Of a stretch of DNA of 64,000 bases, positions 2,428 to 17,541 are shown in pieces. The DNA is from Escherichia coli (GTDB taxonomy: Bacteria; Pseudomonadota; Gammaproteobacteria; Enterobacterales; Enterobacteriaceae). Both the position numbers and the translations under genes were made by a program. The first letter of the stretch is position 1, and each line of letters starts with the position of its first letter. The notes beneath the pieces were generated by a model. The model did not search any database and was not told the DNA's origin. It worked only from the letters and a program-made list of their open reading frames with translations. The DNA lies in NCBI RefSeq assembly GCF_013122565.1, contig NZ_CP053258.1. One strand, written 5' to 3'.

Positions 2428-2629
2428 CGAAATACTCTGGCAGTTATAAACGTTTATTTTTTTACTGTTTGTGATCTGCTTTCCGAACTTATTAAAAAGT
2501 CTCCCGCTTCACGGAGGCTTTTGTTATTGTCCTTTGTGCTTCTCGTCAGTAAATCATCAGGGATGATGTGAAGATTAAATGTAAAACAATTGTTTTGCTA
2601 TAACAATAAATTAACTGGGAGGTTTTATC

Positions 2630-3544
2630 ATGATTTCTGCGGCGACACTTAATTCAGAACTCATTAATAAAATCGCGCAGGATTTTGCGCAGGCGACCAG
2701 CCTTGCGGTTGTCGTGGTCAATATTCACGGCGATGAAATTTCCGAGCTGTTTAACTTCACTCCATTTTGTCAGATGATGCGGCAACACCCTCAGCTAAGC
2801 ACTCGATGTCGCATGAGTGATCGTTGTGGGGGCCTGGAAGCCTCTAAGTCCGATCAGCCTTGTATTTATCGCTGTCATGCCGGATTAACCGATTTCTCTA
2901 TTCCTCTGGTAATCGCCGGACATTTAGTTGGTTTTGTATTGTGCGGGCAAGTTCGTCTGCGTAATGATGATGTCGATTTGGTTGATATTCTGAATGTCGA
3001 TGATTGCTGGCAGGCAGATCCCGAATTACTTAATGAATTCCGCAAAGTCCCTGAGATGGATTACTCAAGAGTTATGGCCTCTGCTGATTTGTTGAAGTTG
3101 ATTGTGGAAAATTGCCTCAAAAAACAACTCAATTTTGTGGTTATTAAAGAAAACAAATCTCAGTCAGATTCGGTGCGCCAGACTCGTGCGCCTAATCCCC
3201 ACGACAATAAAATGAAAAAAGCTTTACGCTATATTGATGCACATTTATCAGACGATTTGCGTCTGGAGGATGTCGCCTCACATGTTTACCTAAGCCCTTA
3301 TTATTTCAGTAAGTTATTTAAGAAATACCATGGAATCGGGTTTAATGCGTGGGTAAACCAACAACGGATGGCCAGCGCTCGTGAGTTACTGTGCCATAGC
3401 GACTGGAGCATCGCCAGCATTGCGCGTAATTTAGGTTTTTCCCAAACCAGTTATTTTTGCAAAGTTTTCCGTCAGACTTATCAGGTTACGCCGCAGGTGT
3501 ATCGGCAGCAAGTGAATGAAAATGCGGCGATGGAAATGGTATAG
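2630..3544 (+). CDS. pocR: AraC-family transcriptional activator of pdu/cob regulon
   Basis: 304-aa ORF with C-terminal AraC-type HTH; position between pduF and the cob leader matches the Salmonella pocR arrangement. Confidence 0.85.
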   Translation: MISAATLNSELINKIAQDFAQATSLAVVVVNIHGDEISELFNFTPFCQMMRQHPQLSTRCRMSDRCGGLEASKSDQPCIYRCHAGLTDFSIPLVIAGHLVGFVLCGQVRLRNDDVDLVDILNVDDCWQADPELLNEFRKVPEMDYSRVMASADLLKLIVENCLKKQLNFVVIKENKSQSDSVRQTRAPNPHDNKMKKALRYIDAHLSDDLRLEDVASHVYLSPYYFSKLFKKYHGIGFNAWVNQQRMASARELLCHSDWSIASIARNLGFSQTSYFCKVFRQTYQVTPQVYRQQVNENAAMEMV

Positions 3545-3649
3545 AGTAAATGCCCCAAAAAAAGAGGACGGTTTAAATAAACTCTGGAATGAATAATTAA
3601 CGTTATTTACCTGTTATGGGAAAAGTAAAATCAGCTCATAACATACGCT

Positions 3650-3860
3650 GACAGGTGTGGCACATTTGTGCCTGGGAAGAGGGTGAAAATCCCTCGCAGC
3701 CCCCGCTGCTGTAATGCTGACAAACCCGAAAATGCCACTGATCGCGAGATTGGGAAGGTCGGGAGAGGATGACGCTAAGCCAGAAGACCAGTCTGTCAGT
3801 CAATACCAACAACTTCGGTGGGAAGTGGGTTGCCCGGAAGCGTTCGGTAGAGTACAGGCG
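3650..3860 (+). promoter_or_regulatory. Cobalamin (B12) riboswitch, cob-operon leader type
   Basis: Conserved elements read directly: cctgggaaga, ggtgaaaatccc, gcagcccccgctgctgtaa, aatgccactg, and a B12-box-like aagccagaagaccagtc at about 3776-3795; boundaries approximate. Confidence 0.7.
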
Positions 3861-4028
3861 CGTCTTTATACCCCTACCACCCTGAAAGGATCAGGGTATG
3901 GCGGCATCATTTAGTTCTTTCATCGCAGTGCCGACAGGCACCAGGGATGCATTCAAGGTGTGGCAATATTGTTTCATGGCTTATCAACCAGAGCGCCATT
4001 ACAGGAAATTAAGTGGAGGGCGAGAGGC

Positions 4029-4466
4029 ATGAAAACGATAAAACCCGAATCGATAGCTCTTTTTTGCCTCTTATCTGGAGATGTGGATCTGGCGAAACAT
4101 CTGGCGGAAATATTGCCAATAACCTGTTTTGTTGGTGAGGACTGGCAGCAAGATTTCCAGCCTCTTAACGGTGGGCCTGTGCAATCGTTATCAGATGCGT
4201 ATAGCGATTATTCAGTGCTGCTATTGATAGCAGCTGAAAGCGAGATATCCGTACCAGAATGGCTCGCTCATTCTGAGGGAACGACGGTAATTTTGATTGC
4301 AGAACACAATGCCCGTTTACTGACTGGTCCGGCTGGTGGGGCTGTAGCATTAATCCATTATCTGAATGAAATCTGTCATTCCAGAGAAACCGCTGTCAAT
4401 GACGCATTTTGTCATACGTTAACACGAGGAAGTCGGGCTATTCCACAATGCCATCTTCTTTCGTAA
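4029..4466 (+). CDS. Hypothetical protein, about 145 aa, downstream of the B12 riboswitch at the position where cbiA would lie
   Basis: ORF 3960..4466 in the track (GTG start); internal ATG at 4029 has a good RBS (ggaggg about 8 nt upstream); no family recognised. Confidence 0.45.
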   Translation: MKTIKPESIALFCLLSGDVDLAKHLAEILPITCFVGEDWQQDFQPLNGGPVQSLSDAYSDYSVLLLIAAESEISVPEWLAHSEGTTVILIAEHNARLLTGPAGGAVALIHYLNEICHSRETAVNDAFCHTLTRGSRAIPQCHLLS

Positions 4467-4599
4467 TGGATTGAGAATGCTGGATTTTTAATTATATTAC
4501 GCGCAGTATTAATCGTGTAAATGTTTTGCGGTCAGCAACGGTGGGGGATCCATTGTTCTGTTCAATGAATACCATCATACAATTGAATCAGGAGTCGGT

Positions 4600-5145
4600 A
4601 TGATGATTTTGGTGACGGGGGGCGCACGGAGCGGGAAGAGTCGCCACGCAGAGGCGCTTATTGGGAACTCTTCACAGGTTCTGTATATCGCCACCTCGCA
4701 AATCCTTGATGATGAGATGGCTGCACGGATAGAACATCATCGGCAAGGCCGTCCGGCGCATTGGCGCACGGTGGAGCGTTGGCAACATCTTGATGAATTA
4801 ATTCATGTAGACATTAACCCGCATGAAGCTGTGTTGCTGGAATGCGTTACCACAATGGTGACTAATCTGTTGTTTGATTATGGCGGCGATAAAGACCCTG
4901 ATGAATGGGATTATCAGGCGATGGAACAGGCGATTAATGCTGAGATTCAGTCGTTGATTGCCGCCTGCCAACGTTGCCCCGCAAAGGTTGTATTAGTGAC
5001 TAACGAAGTGGGAATGGGGATTGTGCCGGAGAGTCGTCTGGCACGACATTTTCGTGATATTGCCGGGCGGGTAAATCAGCAGCTGGCCGCTGCGGCAAAT
5101 GAAGTATGGCTGGTGGTTTCGGGTATTGGAGTAAAAATCAAATGA
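4600..5145 (+). CDS. cobU: Adenosylcobinamide kinase / adenosylcobinamide-phosphate guanylyltransferase
   Basis: 181 aa, [15 protein letters not shown]-loop N-terminus; matches CobU. Confidence 0.95.
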
Positions 5146-5885
5146 GTAAATTATTTTGGGCGATGCTCTCATTTATTACGCGTCTGCCTGTACCGCGTCG
5201 CTGGTCCCAGGGACTGGATTTCGAGCATTATTCTCGCGGTATTATTACTTTTCCTTTAATTGGATTATTGCTTGGCGCGATTAGCGGGCTGGTCTTCACG
5301 GTGCTGCAGGCATGGTGTGGCGTACCACTGGCGGCACTGTTTAGCGTGCTTGTGCTGGCGCTGATGACCGGGGGATTCCACCTGGACGGCCTCGCCGATA
5401 CCTGTGATGGCGTATTTTCTGCACGTAGCCGCGATCGCATGTTGGAAATCATGCGTGATAGCCGTTTAGGCACCCACGGCGGTCTGGCATTGATTTTTGT
5501 TGTACTGGCAAAGATTCTGGTGTTAAGCGAGTTGGCTCTGCGTGGCGAACCGATCCTTGCATCGCTGGCGGCAGCATGTGCGGTCAGCCGCGGGACTGCC
5601 GCATTATTGATGTATCGTCATCGTTATGCCCGGGAAGAAGGGCTTGGCAATGTGTTCATTGGCAAAATTGATGGGCGACAAACCTGCGTCACACTCGGCT
5701 TAGCCGCTATTTTTGCTGCCGTATTATTGCCGGGTATGCATGGTGTGGCTGCTATGGTGGTGACGGTGGTGGCGATTTTCATCCTCGGTCAGCTTCTCAA
5801 ACGTACGCTGGGCGGGCAAACCGGCGATACGCTGGGAGCTGCTATAGAGCTTGGTGAACTGGTCTTCCTGCTGGCACTGCTATAA
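5142..5885 (+). CDS. cobS: Cobalamin (5'-phosphate) synthase
   Basis: Start trimmed to [16 protein letters not shown] (ATG at 5142, overlapping the cobU stop); polytopic membrane protein. Confidence 0.9.
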
Positions 5886-5896
5886 AGAGACGTGAC

Positions 5897-6976
5897 ATGC
5901 AAACACTTGCCGATTTACTGAATACGATCCCTGCTATCGATCCTGCCGCTATGTCGCGTGCACAACGGCATATTGACGGGTTACTCAAACCTGTTGGTAG
6001 CCTTGGAAGGCTGGAGGCGCTTGCCATACAACTGGCAGGAATGCCGGGGTTGAATGGCATACCGTATGTGGGCAAAAAAGCGGTACTGGTTATGTGTGCC
6101 GATCACGGCGTCTGGGAGGAAGGGGTCGCTATTTCCCCAAAAGAAGTGACAGCCATTCAGGCTGAAAATATGACCCGCGGAACAACCGGCGTGTGTGTGC
6201 TGGCAGCACAAGCGGGCGCTAACGTCCACGTAATTGATGTTGGTATTGATACTGTTGAACCTATCCCCGGGCTTATCAACATGCGTGTCGCACGAGGTAG
6301 CGGCAATATTGCTTCAGCTCCGGCAATGAGTCGCCGTCAGGCTGAAAAGTTGCTTTTGGACGTCATATGTTATACGCGGGAGCTGGCAAAAAACGGTGTC
6401 ACGCTGTTTGGTGTAGGTGAACTGGGGATGGCAAACACGACACCGGCAGCGGCAATAGTCAGCACAATCACTGGCCGGGATCCTGAAGAAGTGGTTGGGA
6501 TTGGCGCAAACCTGCCGACAGATAAACTGGCTAATAAAATTGATGTTGTGCGCCGGGCGATTACGTTGAATCAACCAAATCCGCAGGATGGCGTTGATGT
6601 TCTGGCAAAAGTGGGGGGATTTGATTTGGTCGGAATGGCTGGCGTGATGTTAGGCGCTGCTTCCTGCGGTTTACCCGTGTTGCTGGATGGATTTCTTTCT
6701 TATGCTGCTGCGCTCGCAGCCTGCCAGATGTCTCCTGCAATCAAACCGTATCTCATTCCTTCTCACCTGTCGGCAGAAAAAGGGGCGCGTATAGCGCTGT
6801 CGCATTTGGGGCTGGAGCCTTATCTCAATATGGATATGCGTTTAGGTGAGGGGAGTGGCGCAGCTCTGGCGATGCCCATCATCGAAGCTGCTTGTGCGAT
6901 ATACAACAACATGGGCGAACTTGCTGCCAGTAATATTGTTCTACCGGGGAAAACGTCTTCTGATTTGAACAGTTAA
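5897..6976 (+). CDS. cobT: Nicotinate-nucleotide--dimethylbenzimidazole phosphoribosyltransferase
   Basis: 359 aa, [19 protein letters not shown]; third gene of cobUST. Confidence 0.95.
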
Positions 6977-7037
6977 AAACGAAAAGTCTGATAAAAGCTA
7001 TACTTAACGAACAGCTTTCGCGACTTAGGAAAGGGAC

Positions 7038-7964
7038 ATGATGCGTCGTGTAAATATTCTTTGCTCATTTGCTCTGCTTTTTGCCAGCCATACTAGCCTG
7101 GCGGTAACCTATCCATTACCTCCAGAGGGTAGCCGTTTAGTGGGGCAGTCGCTTACTGTAACTGTTCCTGATCACAATACCCAGCCGCTGGAGACTTTTG
7201 CCGCACAATACGGGCAAGGGTTAAGTAACATGCTTGAAGCGAACCCGGGCGCTGATGTTTTTTTGCCGAAGTCTGGCTCGCAACTCACCATTCCGCAGCA
7301 ACTGATTTTGCCCGCCACTGTTCGTAAAGGGATTGTGGTTAACGTCGCTGAGATGCGTCTTTATTACTACCCGCCAGACAGTAATACTGTGGAAGTCTTT
7401 CCTATTGGTATCGGCCAGGCTGGGCGAGAAACCCCGCGTAACTGGGTGACTACCGTTGAACGTAAACAAGAAGCACCAACCTGGACGCCAACGCCGAACA
7501 CTCGGCGCGAATATGCGAAACGAGGGGAGAGTTTGCCCGCATTTGTTCCTGCGGGGCCCGATAATCCCATGGGGCTGTACGCGATTTATATTGGCAGGTT
7601 GTATGCCATCCATGGTACCAATGCCAATTTTGGTATTGGACTTCGGGTAAGTCAGGGCTGTATTCGTCTGCGCAATGACGATATCAAGTATCTGTTTGAT
7701 AATGTTCCTGTAGGTACTCGTGTGCAAATTATCGACCAGCCAGTAAAATACACCACTGAACCAGATGGCTCGAACTGGCTGGAAGTTCATGAGCCGCTGT
7801 CGCGCAATCGTGCAGAATATGAGTCTGACCGAAAAGTGCCATTGCCTGTAACCCCATCTTTGCGGGCGTTTATCAACGGGCAAGAAGTTGATGTGAATCG
7901 CGCAAATGCTGCGTTGCAACGACGATCGGGAATGCCTGTGAATATCAACCGTAACGGATTTTGA
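7038..7964 (+). CDS. ldtA: L,D-transpeptidase (YkuD domain)
   Basis: 308 aa with signal peptide and catalytic-region motif [20 protein letters not shown]; synteny next to cobT as for erfK/ldtA. Confidence 0.9.
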
Positions 7965-8125
7965 CATTCAAAACGTCTGGTTTTTCGGTCTGAGTAAGCA
8001 TTACGTCATGCAGAACAGGTTGTTTCGAATCATACAAATCATAATTTTCTTCTCATATGCGCATCTCTTATGAGCATAATCGTTATACTCTTCTGATTTA
8101 TACATGTTTGCTGATGACATGATCA

Positions 8126-9103
8126 ATGGAAAAGAGAATGACGAAACAGAAAAAAAACAGCCGCTGGCAGGGTTACGATCCTCGCTACATATACTCGCTC
8201 GTGGTCAGACGTTATTTTGCGGATATGAAAACCAAGATTGAGATTGCAGAGGAGCTTGGCGTTTCCCGCTTTAAAGTTGCCAGATTGATCGATGAGGCGA
8301 TCGAACAGGATTACGTGAGGTTTATCTTCCCTAAGCAGCAAGCGATGGATGAAGAAATCGCCAATAATCTACGGAAAAAATTTCATCTGGAAGATGCAAT
8401 TGTTCTTTCAGTTGCTGAATCCTGGACGACGCAAGAAGAACTCAATCACAAATTGGGTGAAGTCACCGCTGAATATCTTATGCAATCTCTTCATGAAGGT
8501 ATGAAAGTGGGGATCGCCTGGGGACGTGTATTATCAAGCACGGTCAGTAAGTTGAGCAAGTTGCCTCCTTTAGACGTTGTGCAGTTATCTGGCGTACATC
8601 CGGGGATAGAGTTTAGTCAAGGGCCAATAGATCTTATTCATAAGATCGCTGCCATTTCGCAGGGAAAAGCGCACCCAATGTACGTGCCGATGTGGGTCGA
8701 TGACGAAGAGCTTGCTGCCAGACTGGCAGGTGATCCTGCGGTATTAGATACACAGCAATATTACTCACAGTTGGATGTGGTTATCACCGGGATAGGTGAC
8801 TGGAAATCAGGTTCTTCAAGCTTGTATAAAATATTTCCGGATACCTGGTGCGAAGCTTTGTTTCAACAAGATATCGCTGCGGATGTGTGTATCTCGTTGG
8901 TCAACAGGGAAGGGAAGATTCTTCATAGTCCTATTGAACGTCTGGGATTTGGCATTTCGACGGATCAACTACAAAAAGCCAAAAAAGTGATTGGTGTCGC
9001 TGGAGGAGAAGAAAAATATGAAGGCATTCTTGCTTCGCTGAAATCCGGACTTTTGAATGTCTTAATTACTGATTTTGATACGGCCATTAAACTTCTGGAT
9101 TAA
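8126..9103 (+). CDS. SorC/DeoR-family sugar-binding transcriptional regulator
   Basis: 325 aa; N-terminal HTH (IEIAEELGVSRFKVARLI) followed by a sugar-binding-like domain; true start may be 8138 (MTKQKK). Confidence 0.75.
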   Translation: MEKRMTKQKKNSRWQGYDPRYIYSLVVRRYFADMKTKIEIAEELGVSRFKVARLIDEAIEQDYVRFIFPKQQAMDEEIANNLRKKFHLEDAIVLSVAESWTTQEELNHKLGEVTAEYLMQSLHEGMKVGIAWGRVLSSTVSKLSKLPPLDVVQLSGVHPGIEFSQGPIDLIHKIAAISQGKAHPMYVPMWVDDEELAARLAGDPAVLDTQQYYSQLDVVITGIGDWKSGSSSLYKIFPDTWCEALFQQDIAADVCISLVNREGKILHSPIERLGFGISTDQLQKAKKVIGVAGGEEKYEGILASLKSGLLNVLITDFDTAIKLLD

Positions 9104-9154
9104 TAGCCATATCAGTGAAGAAAGGGCAGTACCGCTGATTCTGCCCTTTTAATT

Positions 9155-9613
9155 TCAGGATGCTGCGAGCGTATCCTCTACATATTTAGCCACGTGCGTT
9201 GCAGGTAAATTGCGGCAAGTCTCAACAAAGGCGTTATCCTGAAACAGTGTGAATAAACGACGCAATATCGACATATGTTGATCACTGGTGGCAAATGCCA
9301 GGTTAAACATAATGCTACAATCAACTGTTAAATCAGCATCTTCCATTTGCCCGAAAGTGACATCATTGGCGAAACGAACAATACTGATACTGTTTACATT
9401 TACCAGCGTGTAATCGGCATGGGGAATGGCGATACCCTGACCGTTTGCCATCATTAGTCCTGTCGGATAGCTTTTTTCACGTTCCAGGCAGGCGTCAATG
9501 TATTCTGCAGTGATGTAGCCTTTTTCCAATAATTGCGTACCGGCAAAGGTGATCGCAGTTTGATAGTCACTGATGCTGTTATCAACATCATTCACCAGAA
9601 TTTCAAGTTTCAT
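9155..9613 (-). CDS. PTS EIIA component (fructose/mannitol/galactitol type, EIIA-2)
   Basis: 152 aa with phospho-His region GQGIAIPHADY; last gene of a minus-strand PTS operon. Confidence 0.8.
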   Translation of the reverse strand: MKLEILVNDVDNSISDYQTAITFAGTQLLEKGYITAEYIDACLEREKSYPTGLMMANGQGIAIPHADYTLVNVNSISIVRFANDVTFGQMEDADLTVDCSIMFNLAFATSDQHMSILRRLFTLFQDNAFVETCRNLPATHVAKYVEDTLAAS

Positions 9614-9623
9614 TGCACACCTG

Positions 9624-9908
9624 TTATTTCAACATCTCTTCTTTAACTGCAGCGAAAATCTCATCTTCGCCCAGACCTGTCAGTAATCCAGCGCCAACGA
9701 TGACACGAGTAGTAATGGCCGGGTTATCGAGTTTGGTCGATGAAACCACCAGGTCATAGCTGTTGAAGGTATCGCTGGTGCATGCCATTAACGAAGATTT
9801 ATCGACTTGCGCTTCAATTTTCTCTTCTTTCAGGAAGTCCTGCAGTACAGAGACCATGATGGAAGATGAGGCAATTCCGTTTCCGCAAACTACTAAGATT
9901 TTTTTCAT
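9624..9908 (-). CDS. PTS EIIB component (galactitol/ascorbate-type)
   Basis: 94 aa, MKKILVVCGNGIASSS with the phospho-Cys motif. Confidence 0.8.
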   Translation of the reverse strand: MKKILVVCGNGIASSSIMVSVLQDFLKEEKIEAQVDKSSLMACTSDTFNSYDLVVSSTKLDNPAITTRVIVGAGLLTGLGEDEIFAAVKEEMLK

Positions 9909-9931
9909 TTGATTATTCCTCTGTAAAAGAT

Positions 9932-11302
9932 TTAAAGCGCTTTTTCCAAATCCGTTTCAATCTGGCGACGTGATTTTTGTTTAATTAAGTATCCAATAGA
10001 TAACAAAAGGATACCTGCCATCAAATAGCCAATGATTCCAACATGGCTCAGGGCGGCAAACAGACCAGTAAATGGATTCGCTGACGGGTTAAGTGAAGAG
10101 TACATTACGCTGGCATCCGGGTTTGTACCAAATTTCTGGAAGACTTCGTTGGTAGCCGGTGCCATCCACGACGCAATATACAGACCACCACCGAACAAAA
10201 TGATCGAGGTCACCCAGGTGCGAATAATGTTGCCATTAAAAACAGGTACCATGCAGGCAATAAAAAACACAAACTGAGAGAGGTCACCCAGTGGCATAAC
10301 GCGGTTGCCGGGCAAGATCACGGCGAGGATCACAATGACCGGGATCAGTAATAATGCAGGGGCGATAACTGATGGATGACCCACAATCAGAGCAGTGTCC
10401 ATACCAACAGTGATTTGACGATCCGGGAACCGTTTGACCAGTTTTTTGCGTGCTACGTTGGAAAGCGGAACAAGTCCTTCCATCATGATAGAGGTCATAC
10501 GTGGTAACAGAAGCATGACCGCAGCCAGATACATCCCTAACTGTAGGCTGGCGATTATGGTGTGGTATGGGGATTTCCAGCCATAACCACAAAAGCCCAA
10601 CAAAATACCAATAATAAAACCAACCATAGTTGGATCGCCGAGAATGCCAAACCGTTTTTGAATAGTTTCGGCGGTCACATTCAGATTACGGAAGCCTGGG
10701 ATGCGATCATAAATCCAGTTGAATGGATAAGCGAAAAGTAAGTAGGTATTGGCAACCGGGTGAGAGATCGCAACACCTTTTGGCAGGTTAAAGAATTTTT
10801 CGTTATTTTTAGCACCAAGATCGGCAGCGATCAGCGCCCAGACATGGAATAGCGCGGCGGTCAATGCGCCATACAGGAAACTACCAGAATAGACGCCAAC
10901 AATTGCCCCCATTGACGCATTTTGATGAAGGTTGAAAACATCAACGTTAACACAGTCAGTCAGGCGGGCGACCAGCATTGCAATATTTACCGCAACACAG
11001 AGGGGAATAATGATAGCGCCCATGCTGGAGCCAAATCCCATAACCGCAGTCGCTGCGCCACCAACATCGATGGCACTGAGCGAGGAACCTGTTGCTTCTG
11101 CTAATCCGGTGACTGCCGGTTGCATTTTTTCCAGCATCAGTTTGATGGTCATGGTTAGCGCAATGAAACCAATGCCTACTTTGATGGCAGACGAGATACA
11201 TTCAGAAAGAGGACGGCCAAGTATCTTCATCAGTACCAGGAAGATGACCGGGATAAATATAAAATTTCCCAGATCGTTTATAAATTGCGTGATCAGTTCC
11301 AT
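9932..11302 (-). CDS. PTS EIIC permease, galactitol (GatC) family
   Basis: 456-aa polytopic membrane protein between IIB and the isomerase gene. Confidence 0.8.
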   Translation of the reverse strand: MELITQFINDLGNFIFIPVIFLVLMKILGRPLSECISSAIKVGIGFIALTMTIKLMLEKMQPAVTGLAEATGSSLSAIDVGGAATAVMGFGSSMGAIIIPLCVAVNIAMLVARLTDCVNVDVFNLHQNASMGAIVGVYSGSFLYGALTAALFHVWALIAADLGAKNNEKFFNLPKGVAISHPVANTYLLFAYPFNWIYDRIPGFRNLNVTAETIQKRFGILGDPTMVGFIIGILLGFCGYGWKSPYHTIIASLQLGMYLAAVMLLLPRMTSIMMEGLVPLSNVARKKLVKRFPDRQITVGMDTALIVGHPSVIAPALLLIPVIVILAVILPGNRVMPLGDLSQFVFFIACMVPVFNGNIIRTWVTSIILFGGGLYIASWMAPATNEVFQKFGTNPDASVMYSSLNPSANPFTGLFAALSHVGIIGYLMAGILLLSIGYLIKQKSRRQIETDLEKAL

Positions 11303-11305
11303 ACA

Positions 11306-11842
11306 TTAACCCTCAGATTTTTCATCATCTGGTCGGAAACCCATATTCCAGCGTACATCAGCGGGCTTAACCAGCAATGCATTATCGTTACGTTCAGCTT
11401 CTAGTAAGTTCTTTTTAGAATTTTCTCTGGCGGTGGTGAAGTCGAATGGGTTATCCAACCATGCATCGACAATCATTTTGCTGTATTCGAGATCGTTGAC
11501 CCGGCAACCCAGTCCAATAACTTGTGCGTTATTGCTGAGTCGCGCCCGCTTTGCGGAGTAGGGGTTAGTAACCGCAACGGCTCTTATGCCCCAGTGTTTG
11601 TTGATCTGACAAGTAAAGCCAATGCCAGTCCCACAAATGTAAATTCCCAGACGGCACTCATCGCGTTGAATAATGCCTGCCATTTCGTCGGCCAGACGCG
11701 CGAAGTTATTGACACCTTGTTCCTTACATGTGACGGGATCGTACACGATCTCCATGTTTTTCTCTTCTATGAGGTATTTTTTTATCTCCTCTTTACGTGC
11801 AAAACCTACATCATCGCTTGCGATAGCAATCTTTGTTTTCAT
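11306..11842 (-). CDS. RpiB/LacA/LacB-family sugar-phosphate isomerase with C-terminal extension
   Basis: 178 aa, MKTKIAIASDDVGF...GIYICGTGIGF, typical of ribose-5-P isomerase B / allose-6-P / galactose-6-P isomerases; first gene of the operon. Confidence 0.75.
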   Translation of the reverse strand: MKTKIAIASDDVGFARKEEIKKYLIEEKNMEIVYDPVTCKEQGVNNFARLADEMAGIIQRDECRLGIYICGTGIGFTCQINKHWGIRAVAVTNPYSAKRARLSNNAQVIGLGCRVNDLEYSKMIVDAWLDNPFDFTTARENSKKNLLEAERNDNALLVKPADVRWNMGFRPDDEKSEG

Positions 11843-12190
11843 TTCATTTTGCCTGTCGTTAAGTAACTAAAGCCAAGTATGCTGTTGGTAAATATTGGTT
11901 GTCAATTGAGATCTAAATCACAAAATTTATAACTGATTGATTTTTAATGAATTAAAAACCAATAAAAACAAATAAAAAATAAATTAAGCCAATTAAAACA
12001 AAGTAGGCTTGCACAAGCACTTTGCAATTAATAATAAAAACACATTAAATATCAATCATATATATGAATTGCCAAACATTGTCTTTATTGGGCTTATTTG
12101 TACTTTCTACAGTTAGTGTTTGTTTTTGTTTGCATCATCTGTGCTATGCTTGGCGTTTTCTAAGATGGGCAATAGATTTCAGGAGGAAGG

Positions 12191-12946
12191 ATGTATCTGG
12201 TTGATGAAAGGCGAAAGTTAATACTTGAAGACTTAATGTCGGCAGGTACGGTCTATGTCAGTGATCTTGCACGAAAGTATGAAGTAACGTATGAGACCAT
12301 CAGGAAAGATTTGACCCATCTTGAACAAAAAGGGCTGCTGATCAAAAGCCATGGTGGGGCGACTTTAAAGCAAAGGGCCATAGAGCATCCCTTTCAGGTC
12401 AGGGAAAAAGAAAATAACTCTTATAAGAAGGCGATAGCTCGTAAAGCGCTTGATTTCATTCCGCCTAATAGTTCGATGATTATCGGTACGGGCAGTACCA
12501 CTTTTGAGCTGGCTAACCTGTTATGTATGAAGTCTGGGTTTAAAATCTTCACAGATTCGCTCCCCGTTGCCAGTGTGTTGATTGAATCTGACAATCAGGT
12601 TTTTCTCTTTGGCGGCGAACTGCGTAGAAAGAGTTCCTCAGTGTTTGGGGGGTGGGCGGTATCTATGATCAACGATATACATGTTGATCTCTGTTTCATT
12701 GGAACCGACGGCTTTAGTAACATGACTGGTCCATCGACGCCTTCTTCTTCTGATGCGTTTTTGGATCGCACGATAATTTCGCACTCAGACAAAAAATATA
12801 TCCTCGGTGATTACACCAAGTTTGAGCGCAGCAGTTTGTTTAAGATCTGCGACTGGTCGGAGATCACCGCCCTTATTACCAACGATCATGCCGACAAAGA
12901 GGGGATTGCCGAAGTCGCAAAATACACGTCAGTAATAACCTGTTAG
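12191..12946 (+). CDS. DeoR/GlpR-family transcriptional regulator
   Basis: 251 aa; N-terminal HTH (VYVSDLARKYEVTYETIRKDL) plus DeoR-type sugar-phosphate-binding C-domain; divergent from the first PTS operon. Confidence 0.8.
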   Translation: MYLVDERRKLILEDLMSAGTVYVSDLARKYEVTYETIRKDLTHLEQKGLLIKSHGGATLKQRAIEHPFQVREKENNSYKKAIARKALDFIPPNSSMIIGTGSTTFELANLLCMKSGFKIFTDSLPVASVLIESDNQVFLFGGELRRKSSSVFGGWAVSMINDIHVDLCFIGTDGFSNMTGPSTPSSSDAFLDRTIISHSDKKYILGDYTKFERSSLFKICDWSEITALITNDHADKEGIAEVAKYTSVITC

Positions 12947-13123
12947 AACTCCCTACAACACGCCTTCTCCCTTCGAATCAGCTTTGCCAAATGTAATCAT
13001 TTCCAAATTATCAAGTGAGCATCCATGGTGATGCTTGCTTAGCGCCCTTTATTGAATGCATCCTCTGCATATTGCCAGTTGCACCTCATTTTTTGCGAAG
13101 AAATCATTTTTTGAATCACGGTT

Positions 13124-13263
13124 TGCTCATATGAGCATAAATGCTGTCGCCATTATGTGCTTTTTTGTGATCTGGATTTAATTTCTCAGATCTCGTCATT
13201 TATCCACAGGATCGTTGTGCTATAACTGCTCATATGAATATTGTTCAATGCTCATGTGAGCAT
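13124..13263. promoter_or_regulatory. Candidate operator: palindromic tgctcatatgagca-type sites upstream of the second PTS operon
   Basis: Perfect 14-bp palindrome tgctcatatgagca at 13124-13137; related half-site tgctcatatgaa at 13227-13238 and near-palindrome tgctcatgtgagca at 13250-13263. Confidence 0.45.
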
Positions 13264-13284
13264 TGTGGGGTGAGGGGGAAGGAT

Positions 13285-13728
13285 ATGATATCGATCAGTG
13301 TTGCCGATGGTGCGGGACTACAGAACTACGATGCCGTGCTTGAACATATTTATAACACGCATCGTGAAACGAATACGGTGAAAGAGAGCTGGCTCAATGC
13401 TATGCGTAAACGCGAAGCGGAATATCCGACAGGAATAGAACTGGAAGGTTATTCTATCGCTATACCACACTGTGATAGTGAACATGCGAATCAACCGGCT
13501 ATTTATATCATCCGTCTGCCAGACGCAATACCTGTGAACAGGGCTGATGAAGATGGAATATTGTGGGTCAGACTCGTCGTTAATCTTATTGTTACGGATC
13601 CTGCTGACCAGCTTCGATTGTTAAAGTCATTATTTAACCATCTCCAAAATGAAGAATTTTACCAAAACTTACTGACACTTCCCGTCGATGATGCAAAAGC
13701 ACTTTTTGTGTCCAAAATAATCCAATAG
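13285..13728 (+). CDS. PTS EIIA component (EIIA-2 type)
   Basis: Phospho-His region YSIAIPHCD; start placed at the ATG at 13285 with a gggggaagga RBS; the track ORF starts at 13234 inside the palindromes. Confidence 0.75.
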   Translation: MISISVADGAGLQNYDAVLEHIYNTHRETNTVKESWLNAMRKREAEYPTGIELEGYSIAIPHCDSEHANQPAIYIIRLPDAIPVNRADEDGILWVRLVVNLIVTDPADQLRLLKSLFNHLQNEEFYQNLLTLPVDDAKALFVSKIIQ

Positions 13729-13746
13729 TAAAAACTGGAGTTTATT

Positions 13747-14040
13747 ATGATTAATATTCTTGTTGCTTGTGGTAGCGGTGTCGCTACATCTACGCTTGCT
13801 GCTGATGAAGTGAAGTCAGTATGTGCTGAATATGGTATTACGGCATTTAAAATCAACAAATGCAGTATGGCTGAACTTTCTTCTGAGATGGCTCATGCAG
13901 ATATTGTACTCACAACTAATAACTATAAAGGTGATATTGGGAAACCACATATGAGTGTTGCAGGTTTTGTAACGGGTATTAATGAAGGAGCATTACGCAA
14001 GAAATTAGGAGAGTTATTAACTGAATTAGCAAATAGCTAA
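13747..14040 (+). CDS. PTS EIIB component (galactitol-type)
   Basis: 97 aa, MINILVACGSGVATST phospho-Cys motif. Confidence 0.8.
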   Translation: MINILVACGSGVATSTLAADEVKSVCAEYGITAFKINKCSMAELSSEMAHADIVLTTNNYKGDIGKPHMSVAGFVTGINEGALRKKLGELLTELANS

Positions 14041-14060
14041 ACCTGACAGGAATAATAAAA

Positions 14061-15314
14061 ATGGAAATGTTGAAAAATTTAATGGAAACCATCACCGGAA
14101 TGGGGGCAACTGCAATACTGCCGCTGGTGATATTTATTTTAGGTCTGGTGTTCAGAATGAAACCAGGTGCCGCGATCAAGTCGGGCATCACAGTCGGTAT
14201 TGGTTTTATTGGTTTAGGTTTGGTTGTTGGTTTATTAAATAGTTCATTACAGCCAGCTATTGAGTATTACTCAAAAGTAGGTAGTGGTTTTACGGTTGCA
14301 GATATTGGTTGGCCAGCAGTCGGTGCTGCTGCATGGGTAGCACCTTTTGCCGCATTAGTGATACCAGTTGGCATCGTACTTAACCTGATACTGGTGCGCC
14401 TGAAATTAACCAAAACGTTAAATGTTGATATCTGGAACTATATGCATTTTTTAGTTCCGGGCGCTCTGGCATATTTTGTGTTCGACAGTTTTATCATCGG
14501 CTTCTCTGTCGCGGTGGCTTTGAGTATTGCGGCTCTGTTTATTGGCGATTTGATTGCGCCCAGATGGCAAAAATATTATGGACTCGAGGGAACAACCTGT
14601 ACCACGATGATTCATATCGGCTGGACTCTACCGTTCGCCTGGGTAGTAAATAAAATCATTGATTACATCCCAGGGTTAAATAAGTTAGATGTTGATTTAA
14701 ACAGCGTGCAAAAACGCCTGGGTGTCTTTGGTGAACCTGCAATTATCGGTGTTATCGTTGGCGCATTACTCGGAGTTTTAACGAAACAGGCAATTACCAC
14801 AATTGTTCCCATGGCGATGGGGGTTGCTGGCGTAATGGTATTATTGCCTAAAGTGGTCGGTGTGCTGATGGAAGGTCTTAACCCGATTGGGAAAAGTGCT
14901 AAAGAAATCATGCAAAAACAGATGGGTAAAGATGCAGAATTAAACATCGGTATGGATTGTGCACTGGCGTTGGGGGATCCGGCTACGGTCACCGTGACAG
15001 TAATTACCATTCCTTTAACCATGCTATGTGCTCTGGTATTACCTGATATTAAGATCTTCCCAATCGGCGTATTGATGTCAATTATTTATATGACCACCAT
15101 GACCGTAATGGCGAGCAACGGTAACGTGATTCGTTCGATTATCTCGACCTTGTTATTCTGCGTTGTAGTGATGTATTTAGGCGGTTATGTCGCACCAGGG
15201 GCAACGCAATTTTTAGCTGGAGCCGGTGTAGGCTTGCAAGGACAAGGTACTGATTTTGTATTAACCGGCCCGTGGGAAATTTTAACCTATTGGTTGAGTA
15301 CCGTATTACATTGA
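14061..15314 (+). CDS. PTS EIIC permease, galactitol (GatC) family
   Basis: 417-aa polytopic membrane protein following IIA and IIB. Confidence 0.8.
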   Translation: MEMLKNLMETITGMGATAILPLVIFILGLVFRMKPGAAIKSGITVGIGFIGLGLVVGLLNSSLQPAIEYYSKVGSGFTVADIGWPAVGAAAWVAPFAALVIPVGIVLNLILVRLKLTKTLNVDIWNYMHFLVPGALAYFVFDSFIIGFSVAVALSIAALFIGDLIAPRWQKYYGLEGTTCTTMIHIGWTLPFAWVVNKIIDYIPGLNKLDVDLNSVQKRLGVFGEPAIIGVIVGALLGVLTKQAITTIVPMAMGVAGVMVLLPKVVGVLMEGLNPIGKSAKEIMQKQMGKDAELNIGMDCALALGDPATVTVTVITIPLTMLCALVLPDIKIFPIGVLMSIIYMTTMTVMASNGNVIRSIISTLLFCVVVMYLGGYVAPGATQFLAGAGVGLQGQGTDFVLTGPWEILTYWLSTVLH

Positions 15315-15336
15315 TTTAATAATCTGGAGTTTTAAC

Positions 15337-15981
15337 ATGGCAAAAATATTACCTTCTATATTTGGCGCGGATATTTTACGCCTGAAAGATGAAATTCATT
15401 TTCTGGAAGAGGAACAAACCGAAATATTGCACGTTGATTTAATGGATGGCACTTATGTCAGTAATATTGCCTTTGGCCCAAATCAAATAGCAGCAATGAA
15501 AAAAGCCAGTTCGATGATCTTTGATGTGCACATGATGCTGGCAAATCCTGAGCGACATATTGATGATGTAATCAATACCGGGGCGGAGATGATTTCTGTA
15601 CATTATGAATCGACGCCACATGTACATTATATTATTCAAAAAATCAAAAAAGCGGGTCGCAAAGCAGGTGTTGTGCTTAATCCTGGGACACCTGAATCTG
15701 TCATCGAGTATTTATTAGATGATATTGATTATATATTGTTAATGACAATTAACCCAGGGCAACCAGGCCAGACATTTATTCATAAAAGTCTGGAGAAAAT
15801 CCGTAATACCAAAAAAATGATATCTGGCAGAGATATTCAAATTGAAGTGGATGGTGGCGTTAATCTTGATAATGTAAAACAAGTTAAAGAAGCAGGGGCT
15901 GACCTTATTGTTGTTGGTGGTGCCTTATTTAACAAACAGCCTCGTGAAAGTTATCAGGCATTGAAAATCGCTATTCAGTGA
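15337..15981 (+). CDS. Ribulose-phosphate 3-epimerase family protein (Rpe/AlsE-like ketose-phosphate 3-epimerase)
   Basis: 214 aa with the HVDLMDG signature and TIM-barrel epimerase layout. Confidence 0.8.
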   Translation: MAKILPSIFGADILRLKDEIHFLEEEQTEILHVDLMDGTYVSNIAFGPNQIAAMKKASSMIFDVHMMLANPERHIDDVINTGAEMISVHYESTPHVHYIIQKIKKAGRKAGVVLNPGTPESVIEYLLDDIDYILLMTINPGQPGQTFIHKSLEKIRNTKKMISGRDIQIEVDGGVNLDNVKQVKEAGADLIVVGGALFNKQPRESYQALKIAIQ

Positions 15982-16078
15982 TCACAATCTAAAAATTTCA
16001 CATCCAGTTAAGTGAGGTTTTCGATTTCATATCGGGAGGAAAACCTCAGCTAAAAAATGTCTTTAATGGAGAAAAGTA

Positions 16079-16831
16079 ATGAGTAATTTTGCAGGTAAAG
16101 TGGTTTTAGTTACCGGAGGTGCTCACGGTATTGGCAAAGGGATAGCTAAACAATTTGCTGATCGTGGTGCACATACTGTTATTGTTGACTATAACGAAGA
16201 GAACGGCAAGGCCACTGCAGCAGAGTTAACTTTTGGCGATGTTAAATCGCTGTTTGTTAAAACAGATGTCTCTGATCCACAGGCATTAGTGGATGTACGG
16301 GAAAAAGTATTTGCTACCTTTGGTCGTATTGATGTGTTGATATTAAATGCCGGTGTGGCATTTGCCAATAAAGTTAACAATATTTCTTTTGAGGAATGGA
16401 ATAAGACTATCGCAATTAATTTATCGGGATTATTTAATACCGTTAAGGCGTTTTATGATGATTTCCTGACAAATAAGGGATCTATTGTTTATATCTCATC
16501 GGGATCAGCACTTTCGGGGACTGGAGGCGGTGTGAGTTATCCAGCCAGTAAAGCGGGAGGCGAAGGGTTGATTCGCGGTCTGGCGAAGGAGTTAGGACCA
16601 AAAGGCGTCAATGTTAATGCGATTGCTCCCCGCTTAATAGACACCGGAGAGATGATGCGGGTCAACTATCCGACACAAGCCGATTTAGACGCTGTCCTGG
16701 AAAAAATACCCGTCCGTCGTCTGGGAACTATCGATGATGTGGCTAACCTGGCAATATTTTTGGCAGATAAAGATAACTCTTATATTCAGGGACAAACCAT
16801 TTTAATGGATGGTGGCCGGACTATTGCTTAA
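16079..16831 (+). CDS. Short-chain dehydrogenase/reductase (SDR) family oxidoreductase
   Basis: 250 aa with Rossmann motif TGGAHGIGKG and a YxxxK active-site region (YPASK). Confidence 0.8.
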   Translation: MSNFAGKVVLVTGGAHGIGKGIAKQFADRGAHTVIVDYNEENGKATAAELTFGDVKSLFVKTDVSDPQALVDVREKVFATFGRIDVLILNAGVAFANKVNNISFEEWNKTIAINLSGLFNTVKAFYDDFLTNKGSIVYISSGSALSGTGGGVSYPASKAGGEGLIRGLAKELGPKGVNVNAIAPRLIDTGEMMRVNYPTQADLDAVLEKIPVRRLGTIDDVANLAIFLADKDNSYIQGQTILMDGGRTIA

Positions 16832-16846
16832 AAAGGGAGAGAAAAA

Positions 16847-17407
16847 ATGAGTGTTCAGGAAAATACTATTAATATTCTGCATGAATTAGAGAGTAATGCG
16901 CTGAAGATTGACGATGCTCAGGCTTCACAGTTCATTTCGCAAATCAGAAATGCCCGGCATATTTTTTTGCAGGGAGCTGGTCGCAGTGGCATTGCTATTC
17001 GCGCTTTTGCTAATCGCTTGCTGCATTTAGGTTTTTCAGTAAGCGTTGTGGGAGAAATATCATCACCGCATACTCAACCTGGAGATCTATTAATTATTGG
17101 GTCAGGCAGTGGTGAAACTACCAGTTTGAAAAGTCTGGCACAAAAAGCAGTTGATAGCGGAGTAAACGTCGCTCTGGTAACTATGAAAGCTGATTCAACG
17201 ATCGGTAAATTAGCTCAATCTGTGTTGGTACTACCAGGAAGTGTGAAAGACGATAACAATCGTGTTGCAGGCGCTTTCGCGCAACCAATGGGCTCAGCTT
17301 TTGAGCAACTCTGCTTTATTACTTATGATGCAATTGTTCTGGAGTTGATGTCTGAACTGGGTGAAAGCAGTGCCACAATGTTTACCCGACACGCTGATCT
17401 GGAATGA
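16847..17407 (+). CDS. SIS-domain sugar-phosphate isomerase (6-phospho-3-hexuloisomerase-like)
   Basis: 186 aa; single SIS domain (FLQGAGRSGIA); size and layout resemble HxlB-type PHI. Confidence 0.7.
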   Translation: MSVQENTINILHELESNALKIDDAQASQFISQIRNARHIFLQGAGRSGIAIRAFANRLLHLGFSVSVVGEISSPHTQPGDLLIIGSGSGETTSLKSLAQKAVDSGVNVALVTMKADSTIGKLAQSVLVLPGSVKDDNNRVAGAFAQPMGSAFEQLCFITYDAIVLELMSELGESSATMFTRHADLE

Positions 17408-17465: not shown

Positions 17466-17541
17466 TGGCTCCTCTGACTGGACTCGAACCAGTGACATAC
17501 GGATTAACAGTCCGCCGTTCTACCGACTGAACTACAGAGGA
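17466..17541 (-). tRNA. asnV: tRNA-Asn (GUU)
   Basis: 76-nt reverse complement of the E. coli tRNA-Asn sequence; position between ldtA side and nac. Confidence 0.95.

Follow-up and report, generated by a model that had tools for sequence, protein, structure and literature searches.

A cobalamin riboswitch maintained between pocR and cobU across Escherichia and probably rewired onto cobinamide salvage

What becomes of a riboswitch when the genes behind it have been deleted? The question is raised by a 64,000-nucleotide stretch of Escherichia coli DNA (RefSeq assembly GCF_013122565.1, contig NZ_CP053258.1; hereafter the window), in which the pocR stop codon at 3544 and the cobU start codon at 4600 are separated by a spacer of 1,055 bp (3545–4599). 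No cbiA-cbiP gene is present in this spacer, compared with ~14.1 kb of cbiA-cbiP between the same flanks in Citrobacter (locus L088 of our comparison set). The original prediction for this locus, made from the sequence alone, was of an "orphaned" B12-sensing leader, recognisable at 3.6–3.9 kb by riboswitch elements including a B12 box, related to the Salmonella cob leader and left in about 1 kb between pocR and cobU, with propanediol utilisation retained next door. The analysis bore out all of this except the word orphaned, which holds for the loss of the cbi genes but not for the switch, since it still heads a remnant of its operon, with its expression platform and the start codon of cbiA both in place. 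The window was compared with the pocR loci of 80 species representatives, with full Citrobacter pocR-to-ldtA loci, and with loci of E. albertii and E. marmotae. As detailed below, selection has kept the switch across the genus, and it is thus probably a working switch rewired onto cobinamide salvage.

The retained leader and the selection acting on it

The aptamer matched the Rfam covariance model RF00174 at 107.7 bits (Infernal, gathering threshold 31.5, E = 5e-26) over model positions 1–189 of 189, which is far beyond chance; the covariance-model scan suggested as a check on the prediction thus came out well above threshold. Together with the B12 box, this match places the element among the cobalamin riboswitches, in the adenosylcobalamin (AdoCbl) type; a putative response to a corrinoid has indirect support from the purifying selection described below and from scores that equal those of functional orthologues. 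PGAP already annotates a "cobalamin riboswitch" here in RefSeq E. coli genomes. Orthologous aptamers from Escherichia scored 105.6–112.8 bits, compared with 106.9 in Salmonella and 106.8 in Citrobacter, where the element stands before intact cbi operons, and 241 of the 246 pair cells are kept in the Escherichia aptamers. No compensatory (double) changes were found within Escherichia, where there is too little variation.

Homology to the Citrobacter and Salmonella cob leaders (82–85% blastn identity) begins at ~3594 or 3632 of the window and ends at 3906, three codons into cbiA, whose ATG lies at 3898. With the same flanks on both sides (pocR and cobUST-ldtA), the retained segment is orthologous to those leaders. 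Neither of the two outcomes that would have refuted the prediction, a scan below threshold or a spacer unrelated to the Salmonella leader, was thus obtained. Its expression platform begins with a G-rich block, CAACAACTTCGGTGGGAAGTGGGTTG, in which 23 of 26 alignment columns are invariant among 20 leaders and at least 90% conservation is seen in the remaining ones (T35, T36 and the first C). The G-runs of the block are complementary to CCUACC/CCACC on the 5' flank of a hairpin around the ribosome-binding site (RBS), and in the minimum free energy fold its GGUGG pairs with CCACC. By analogy with the enhancer of the Salmonella cob mRNA, the block is a candidate anti-sequester element; there, according to the work of Ravnum & Andersson (2001) as cited in PMC11162775, the repression of cbiA translation by AdoCbl depends on a hairpin at the RBS together with an enhancer element upstream of it.

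The RBS hairpin of the window carries the Shine-Dalgarno sequence AAGGA in its loop (3886–3890), and the start codon follows one nucleotide beyond it. Across the 20 leaders 94.9% of the hairpin cells are paired and the pairs are almost invariant; the 14 leaders that still control cbiA share this hairpin, the 26-nucleotide block and the ATGGCGGC start with the window. Compensatory changes had been suspected in the hairpin of Klebsiella-type leaders and were ruled out by column-wise counting. Separately, RNAalifold applied to the 20 leaders paired GUUGC(C/U) at 3830–3835 with the G of the start codon and the following GCGGC (3900–3905). This predicted pairing may be part of the sequestering structure, which would account for the first three cbiA codons having outlasted the deletion.

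We measured selection on these elements as mean pairwise p-distance among six Escherichia lineages whose neighbouring genes have a synonymous divergence (dS) of 0.28–0.56. The p-distance was 0.060 for the aptamer and 0.077 for the platform (3811–3897), against 0.15–0.23 for flanking non-coding segments, so that aptamer and platform diverge 3–4 times less than the DNA around them. No indel was found in their 262 nucleotides, against seven events in 224 nucleotides of flanking DNA. In the two small open reading frames (ORFs) that follow, a 44-codon short ORF (sORF) and a 145-codon remnant of cbiG (cbiG'), a single indel of 3 nucleotides was counted where 17.8 were expected (P = 4e-7). These data show purifying selection on the aptamer and platform RNA across the genus, and maintenance of both reading frames.

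The same data bear on the simplest alternative, namely that the leader is a non-functional relic not yet decayed. The original target genes have disappeared, the switch is missing from most E. coli without obvious harm, and double compensatory changes are absent within Escherichia, all of which would suit a relic. On the other hand, the low divergence is seen among lineages that stand at dS 0.3–0.5, the covariance-model scores equal those of functional orthologues, indels are missing from the RNA and present beside it, and heavy decay has meanwhile overtaken the adjoining cbi remnants (cbiG', with 42% identity to its source, and the cbiP tail). Thus, a pure relic is poorly supported and we regard it as very improbable.

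Table 1 Features of the pocR-cobU spacer and its neighbours (window coordinates).
Feature	Position	Strand	Basis or description
pduB/pduA	12–1105	−	family scans
pocR, propanediol-responsive AraC-type activator	2630–3544	+	NF047788 PocR equivalog, 554.7 bits (cutoff 500)
Residual spacer at deletion D1	3545–3593	+	poorly conserved among Escherichia lineages, p-distance 0.23
Retained cob operon leader, aptamer and expression platform	3594–3897	+	blastn against Citrobacter/Salmonella leaders
Cobalamin (AdoCbl-type) riboswitch aptamer	3636–3810	+	RF00174 covariance-model match
B12 box AAGCCAGAAGACCAGTC	3777–3793	+	aligned to consensus AGCCAGGAGACCuGCC in the Rfam alignment
Block CAACAACTTCGGTGGGAAGTGGGTTG, candidate anti-sequester	3807–3832	+	immediately 3' of the aptamer; alignment of 20 leaders
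RBS-sequestering hairpin CCCUGA-AAGGA-UCAGGG	3880–3896	+	read in the sequence, also folded
sORF MAASFSSFIAVPTGT..., 44 codons	3898–4032	+	first codon is the ancestral cbiA ATG, just downstream of the RBS hairpin
cbiG', 145 codons	4029–4466	+	remnant of the 5' third of cbiG (cobalt-precorrin-5A hydrolase)
Decayed cbiP 3' end (last ~47 codons, ~140 bp)	4461–4603	+	tblastx, nhmmer, alignment
Promoter-like TTGAGA-16-TATATT	4471–4498	+	10/12 consensus matches
cobU	4600–5145	+	NF004469, 245.1 bits; NCBIfam equivalog above cutoff
cobS	5142–5885	+	NCBIfam equivalog above cutoff
cobT	5897–6976	+	NCBIfam equivalog above cutoff

Deletions and remnant reading frames

The original prediction spoke of an absent cbi block, a retained leader and one short unknown ORF behind it. 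Alignment indicates that at least three deletions, and not one, separate this locus from the intact arrangement. The first (D1) took ~235 bp, comprising the promoter block and the 5' part of the leader, and fused the leader to the end of pocR; leader retention therefore holds for aptamer and platform but not for the conserved promoter block upstream of them. In Salmonella, Citrobacter and a Klebsiella-like locus (L037), ~320 bp lie between pocR and the aptamer, including a highly conserved block of ~190 bp with a promoter-like TTGTCA-16-TAAAAT (L014 11000–11027), the presumed Pcob promoter. This site stands roughly at the expected start of the Salmonella leader, reported to be 468 nucleotides long. 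In the alignment the ~190-bp block is absent from the window, L004 and L005, where 92 bp separate the pocR stop from the aptamer, and the same short spacer is found in L006, L083 and L086. The locus thus lacks the PocR-dependent promoter of its own (Pcob) and the full 5' leader that characterise the Salmonella-type cob leader. Since its own promoter block is lost, the leader is probably transcribed from pocR, the likely origin of transcripts running into the riboswitch, and a sequence scan of the plus strand found no terminator-like or promoter-like site between the pocR stop and the aptamer. No intrinsic terminator passes the scan after Salmonella pocR either, and we therefore do not claim that D1 removed one.

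The second deletion (D2) took ~6 kb, from cbiA (beyond ~15 codons) through cbiF, and the third (D3) ~7.5 kb by L088 gene coordinates, from the remainder of cbiG through most of cbiP. Of the genes that the switch would have governed, ~3–15 codons of cbiA remain, and cbiB-cbiF and cbiH-cbiO are absent, which leaves no cbi gene to control. The sources of the surviving pieces were sought with nhmmer profiles built from seven Escherichia lineages against 11 intact cob loci, as well as by blastx and tblastx; none was found for 3907–4028 or for 4365–4460 (best E 0.1–0.6).

The sORF had escaped the original prediction, which was right that a short ORF lies downstream of the switch and missed this one. 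Its TGA overlaps the ATG of cbiG' (ATGA), an overlap conserved among Escherichia loci. Nucleotides 10–45 resemble cbiA in register at 15 of 36 positions (9.0 ± 2.6 expected, P = 0.02), and the first ~15 codons are probably decayed cbiA. The idea that its body is the 3' end of cbiF (HYRK versus EYRKA) was not supported, in keeping with the lack of a source for 3907–4028. The sORF is no longer a CbiA (cobyrinate a,c-diamide synthase): it retains at most MAA...SFIAVPTGT, with the P-loop GTGSGCGKT truncated, and ends after 44 codons. An overlapping 66-aa ORF (3714–3914) had no NCBIfam match, and the sORF itself is too short to score. Its length is nevertheless 44 codons in all seven Escherichia sequences, with a probability of 0.04 that no stop would arise under the minimum number of substitutions. 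We calibrated the ratio of nonsynonymous to synonymous divergence (dN/dS, omega) by neutral simulations with the observed transition bias; the value for the sORF, 0.61, is not distinguishable from the neutral 0.78 ± 0.21. Unconstrained amino acids are what is expected of an ORF kept for its translation and not for its product. Thus, with frame and length conserved, amino acids free and stop and start overlapping, the sORF fits, by its sequence features, a translated relay or leader ORF.

The second ORF, the one that had been called unknown, proved to be the N-terminal part of CbiG. By blastx, 4029–4364 aligns with Salmonella CbiG residues 1–119 (42% identity, E = 4e-21) and every gap keeps the frame, and the CbiG model NF004463 gives 69.7 bits, against a cutoff of 546, over profile positions 1–125 of 351. 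The 26 residues that follow have no detectable source, and the frame ends where it runs, out of register, into DNA derived from cbiP. Genuine CbiG proteins hardly differ between genera in their N-termini, whereas the Escherichia remnant lacks GIAVRVLAPL and has SGHAGGAN changed to TGPAGGAV; no Pfam domain, and hence none of CbiG_N, CbiG_mid and CbiG_C, was found in it even at E 10. By these whole-protein and domain measures, cbiG' is best described as a remnant and not as a CbiG. Its AlphaFold model is weak (pLDDT, predicted local distance difference test, 59.7, and lower than 50 in the tail and the deleted region), no PDB sequence match was found, and Foldseek, run on this weak model, returned generic Rossmann-like matches with E above 0.001. 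Homologues were found in Escherichia and Shigella only, under the RefSeq labels "hypothetical protein" or "cobalamin biosynthesis protein".

Despite this decay, cbiG' is intact at 144–145 codons in all seven sequences, from E. coli, E. marmotae, E. albertii and E. whittamii, with a probability of 0.001 that no stop would arise under the minimum number of substitutions. Its omega of 0.43 lies below the neutral 0.69 ± 0.10 (0 of 200 simulations were as low) and falls to 0.28 in codons 1–45; its amino acids are thus modestly constrained. A constraint that goes beyond upkeep of the frame, together with the uniform length, would suit another explanation of the locus, in which the switch is kept mainly to control CbiG' as a small protein that has taken on a new function, for instance in corrinoid handling or regulation, and is made only at low B12, with cobUST on a promoter of their own. 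We consider this unlikely, given that hallmark N-terminal segments of CbiG are lost or changed, that no domain, family-level score, confident model or significant fold match speaks for a protein product, that dN is ~10 times that of neighbouring genes and that the 5' two-thirds of cbiG' have been lost in ~88% of E. coli.

Upstream of cobU, the spacer ends in the tail of cbiP, collinear with the cbiP end and still holding the old overlap of cbiP stop and cobU start; it was recognised by a tblastx match to TIMQQHREPV* and by an nhmmer profile match to L088 16917–17042 (E = 1.6e-5). Within this DNA, derived from cbiP coding sequence, lies a promoter-like site that is identical in K-12-type E. coli, whereas the homologous Citrobacter cbiP sequence (TTAGCT...TTCCAT) is not promoter-like. 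From its match to the consensus it is a candidate constitutive promoter proximal to cobU, which may have arisen de novo after the death of cbiP, and a site in this position between cbiG' and cobU is also what control of CbiG' alone would call for.

A proposed mechanism, its rivals and its distribution

We propose that the AdoCbl riboswitch of the enterobacterial cob operon, with its translational platform, is still at work here in an operon reduced to its last three genes, and give this reading a probability of roughly 0.55; what we infer from the sequence is that the element responds to its ligand, is transcribed from pocR and acts on cobUST by way of coupling and polarity. The transcript would start at the pocR promoters, and hence be propanediol-inducible, and would carry in order pocR, the aptamer, the RBS hairpin, the sORF, the ATGA-coupled cbiG', 140 nucleotides of former cbiP and cobUST. 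When AdoCbl is low, the G-rich conserved block would open the RBS hairpin, both small ORFs would be translated and transcription would proceed through to cobUST, supplementing what a weak proximal promoter supplies. With abundant AdoCbl, the aptamer would fold, the hairpin would mask the Shine-Dalgarno sequence and the sORF and the coupled cbiG' would go untranslated; over the resulting ~570 nucleotides of RNA without ribosomes, read-through into cobUST would fall by Rho-dependent polarity and/or mRNA decay. Open frames would be needed for such a switch to be reversible, and we suggest that both have been kept open because a stop codon within them would make the polarity constitutive. A precedent is the E. 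coli btuB AdoCbl riboswitch, in which translation initiation is blocked and Rho then terminates inside the ORF (PMC11162775). A plus-strand sequence scan found no terminator-like site between the riboswitch and cobU. cobUST, the genes for cobinamide salvage and nucleotide-loop assembly (dN/dS 0.05–0.15), are the presumed regulated output, and the direct B12 feedback on them that the original prediction envisaged is plausible.

A more demanding version is that the remains of the lost operon have been exapted into a regulatory relay, the frames made of cbiA, cbiG and unidentifiable fragments being open only to pass the AdoCbl decision across 570 nucleotides to cobUST, and the loss of the promoter having placed the switch under pocR transcription, so that the "propanediol induces, B12 represses" logic of Salmonella cob/pdu would have been rebuilt without the biosynthetic genes. 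We advance this whole tentatively, and hold it to be possible though rather doubtful. In a stronger form of it, CbiG' would also be a B12-regulated small protein with a new role.

The arrangement is genus-wide in Escherichia. It occurs in 643 of 5,426 complete E. coli genomes, as well as in E. whittamii, two divergent "E. coli" species representatives, E. marmotae and E. albertii. The remaining E. coli genomes (~88%, K-12-type) keep only 4295–4599 upstream of cobU. In the one such genome inspected (AGR5151, L002 4805–5296), this piece adjoins a remnant of an IS4-family transposase, is annotated as a partial "cobalamin biosynthesis protein" pseudogene and has a 9-nucleotide in-frame deletion in the cbiG' remnant. 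The 4295–4599 piece falls into two allele classes in E. coli, one with 90–95% identity to the window (4,031 records) and one with 95–99% (1,364 records).

The loci of E. albertii (L083–L085, 6436–7900) deserve particular attention. There cobU is broken near its start by deletions of 16 and ~85 nucleotides and cobT is absent, with cobS at 6958–7701 followed by ldtA at 7877, so that E. albertii may be unable to salvage cobinamide. Its pdu genes, pocR, riboswitch (112.8 bits), RBS hairpin, sORF and cbiG' are all intact, and the aptamer shows no speeding-up of divergence. That switch, sORF and cbiG' persist beside a dead cobU and cobT speaks for CbiG' as the controlled product. It would also suit an action on pocR, in which the element, 92 nucleotides past the pocR stop, would belong to the 3' untranslated region, make the stability or the 3' end of the pocR mRNA depend on B12 and so tune the pdu regulon to the supply of its cofactor, the downstream genes being incidental. 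The leader's lack of its own promoter, its position next to pocR and the absence of a terminator-like site between them are in line with this idea, and in Listeria a B12 riboswitch beside pocR ties pocR expression to B12 through an antisense RNA. However, a stability element in a 3' untranslated region would need neither a translational platform nor conserved frames in two ORFs, and to our knowledge no mechanism of this kind is known for the cob leader; we consider it quite improbable. Together, the state of E. albertii, the constraint on cbiG' and the loss of the switch in most E. coli keep both control of CbiG' and control of pocR alive as explanations.

Several observations weigh against a riboswitch working on cobUST through translated remnants. 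The C-rich, G-poor composition typical of Rho utilisation (rut) sites was not seen in the sORF or cbiG'. Column-wise counting over the 20 leaders gave no covariation in the RBS hairpin, which is consequently supported by its conservation and by the Salmonella literature. The modest amino-acid constraint on cbiG' is not predicted by a pure translated spacer, and the promoter-like site in the cbiP tail lies downstream of the switch and may bypass it. About 88% of E. coli appear to manage with 4295–4599, and the contribution of the switch to cobUST may be small. Finally, the state of E. albertii fits a function other than control of cobUST, unless the loss of cobU and cobT is recent.

Other records obtained in the survey are listed here as observations in their own right. 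In Escherichia sp. MOD1-EC7003 (L037, 10001–18932) an intact cbiA-cbiG stretch follows pocR, and its PocR is just 85% identical to that of the window, a Klebsiella-like level, so that the locus is possibly a horizontally acquired or misassigned cob/pdu island; at megablast sensitivity, none of the 5,426 complete E. coli genomes has an intact cbi operon of this type. In E. marmotae L086 (315–1968), pduC is split into ORFs of 212 and 329 aa, with riboswitch, ORFs and cobUST intact, and pdu may be inactive in this strain. The deer isolate E. coli LF3-1 (NZ_CM139230.1, 1759390–1759863) matches the spacer from window position 4126 and abuts a gene of the EutP/PduV family, so its pdu-cob junction has been rearranged in another way. 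One contig from a "Citrobacter sp." metagenome-assembled genome (L003, DXKH01000123.1), 98% identical to the window over pocR and spacer, looks like mis-binned E. coli DNA, and a 383-bp contig of a Streptomyces assembly (L064, NZ_POUC01001014.1) with PocR at 99% identity is likely contamination.

Neighbouring features and comparison with known systems

Family scans also identified pduF and, after cobUST, ldtA. The window also carries DsrA, rseX and four identical tRNA-like matches, two of which are annotated as tRNA-Asn at matching positions in strain 6EVA. Antisense between pduF and pocR lies the small RNA STnc230 (RF02075, 74.8 bits; 2486–2569, minus strand), conserved at this position in every Escherichia locus examined, as well as in Salmonella and Citrobacter, and overlapped by a plus-strand hairpin with a T-run (2495–2522). 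Between ldtA and the tRNA-like match at 17469 the window carries an insert (~8100–16900) with a DeoR/LsrR-like regulator at 8126–9103 and two genes for galactitol-type phosphotransferase system components (EIIC), at 9932–11302 (minus strand) and 14061–15314 (plus strand); in strain 6EVA, tRNA-Asn directly follows ldtA.

Full-text literature searching found no published description of the Escherichia arrangement or of selection on its switch. The riboswitch call itself is already in RefSeq; as a regulatory unit the arrangement stands apart from the Salmonella one, with its own promoter lost, the biosynthetic genes absent and two remnant ORFs between the switch and its only real targets. If the proposed mechanism is true, a riboswitch has outlived its genes and taken on a narrower task, the feedback control of cobinamide salvage in strains whose propanediol catabolism requires B12. 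Pseudogene fragments would then be held open by selection for a non-coding reason, a constraint that is rarely documented and can mislead annotation. Since pdu+ E. coli include strains associated with gut inflammation, the matching of B12 salvage to propanediol use is also of some practical interest. We further infer that the Escherichia ancestor had a pocR-cob-pdu locus of the Salmonella/Citrobacter type at the same chromosomal site and lost it piecemeal, which would qualify the classic "loss and reacquisition" account of enteric B12 synthesis.

Among known systems, the orthologous Salmonella leader is the closest: it too lies downstream of pocR, with the same aptamer, B12 box, G-rich block, RBS hairpin and ATGGCGGC start. 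In Salmonella enterica it is an AdoCbl riboswitch exerting translational control of cbiA, as the work of Richter-Dahlfors, Ravnum and Andersson is cited in PMC11162775. The Escherichia leader differs from it in lacking the promoter block and ~190 nucleotides of the 5' leader and in heading a 44-codon remnant instead of cbiA; where seventeen cbi genes once stood, two small ORFs and the end of cbiP are left, and the real output has shrunk to cobUST. The E. coli btuB switch belongs to the same Rfam family and host genus, and its RBS sequestration, its involvement of coding sequence and its Rho termination, which accounts for the effect at the mRNA level, are the mechanism proposed here. However, btuB is one full-length gene with a promoter of its own, whereas the pocR-cobU switch would lie within a longer transcript and would have to act on its targets across two remnant ORFs.

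Cobalamin riboswitches before salvage genes of the cobU/cobS/cobT type are known from other bacteria and are a common design of B12-feedback regulons. Those switches directly precede their genes, whereas the Escherichia arrangement is secondary, reached by deletion and with remnant ORFs in between. Finally, the B12 riboswitch by pocR in the pdu locus of Listeria monocytogenes links propanediol use to B12 through the antisense RNA AspocR; it lies on the opposite strand, in contrast to the Escherichia element, which stands on the same strand, downstream of pocR, and carries a translational platform.

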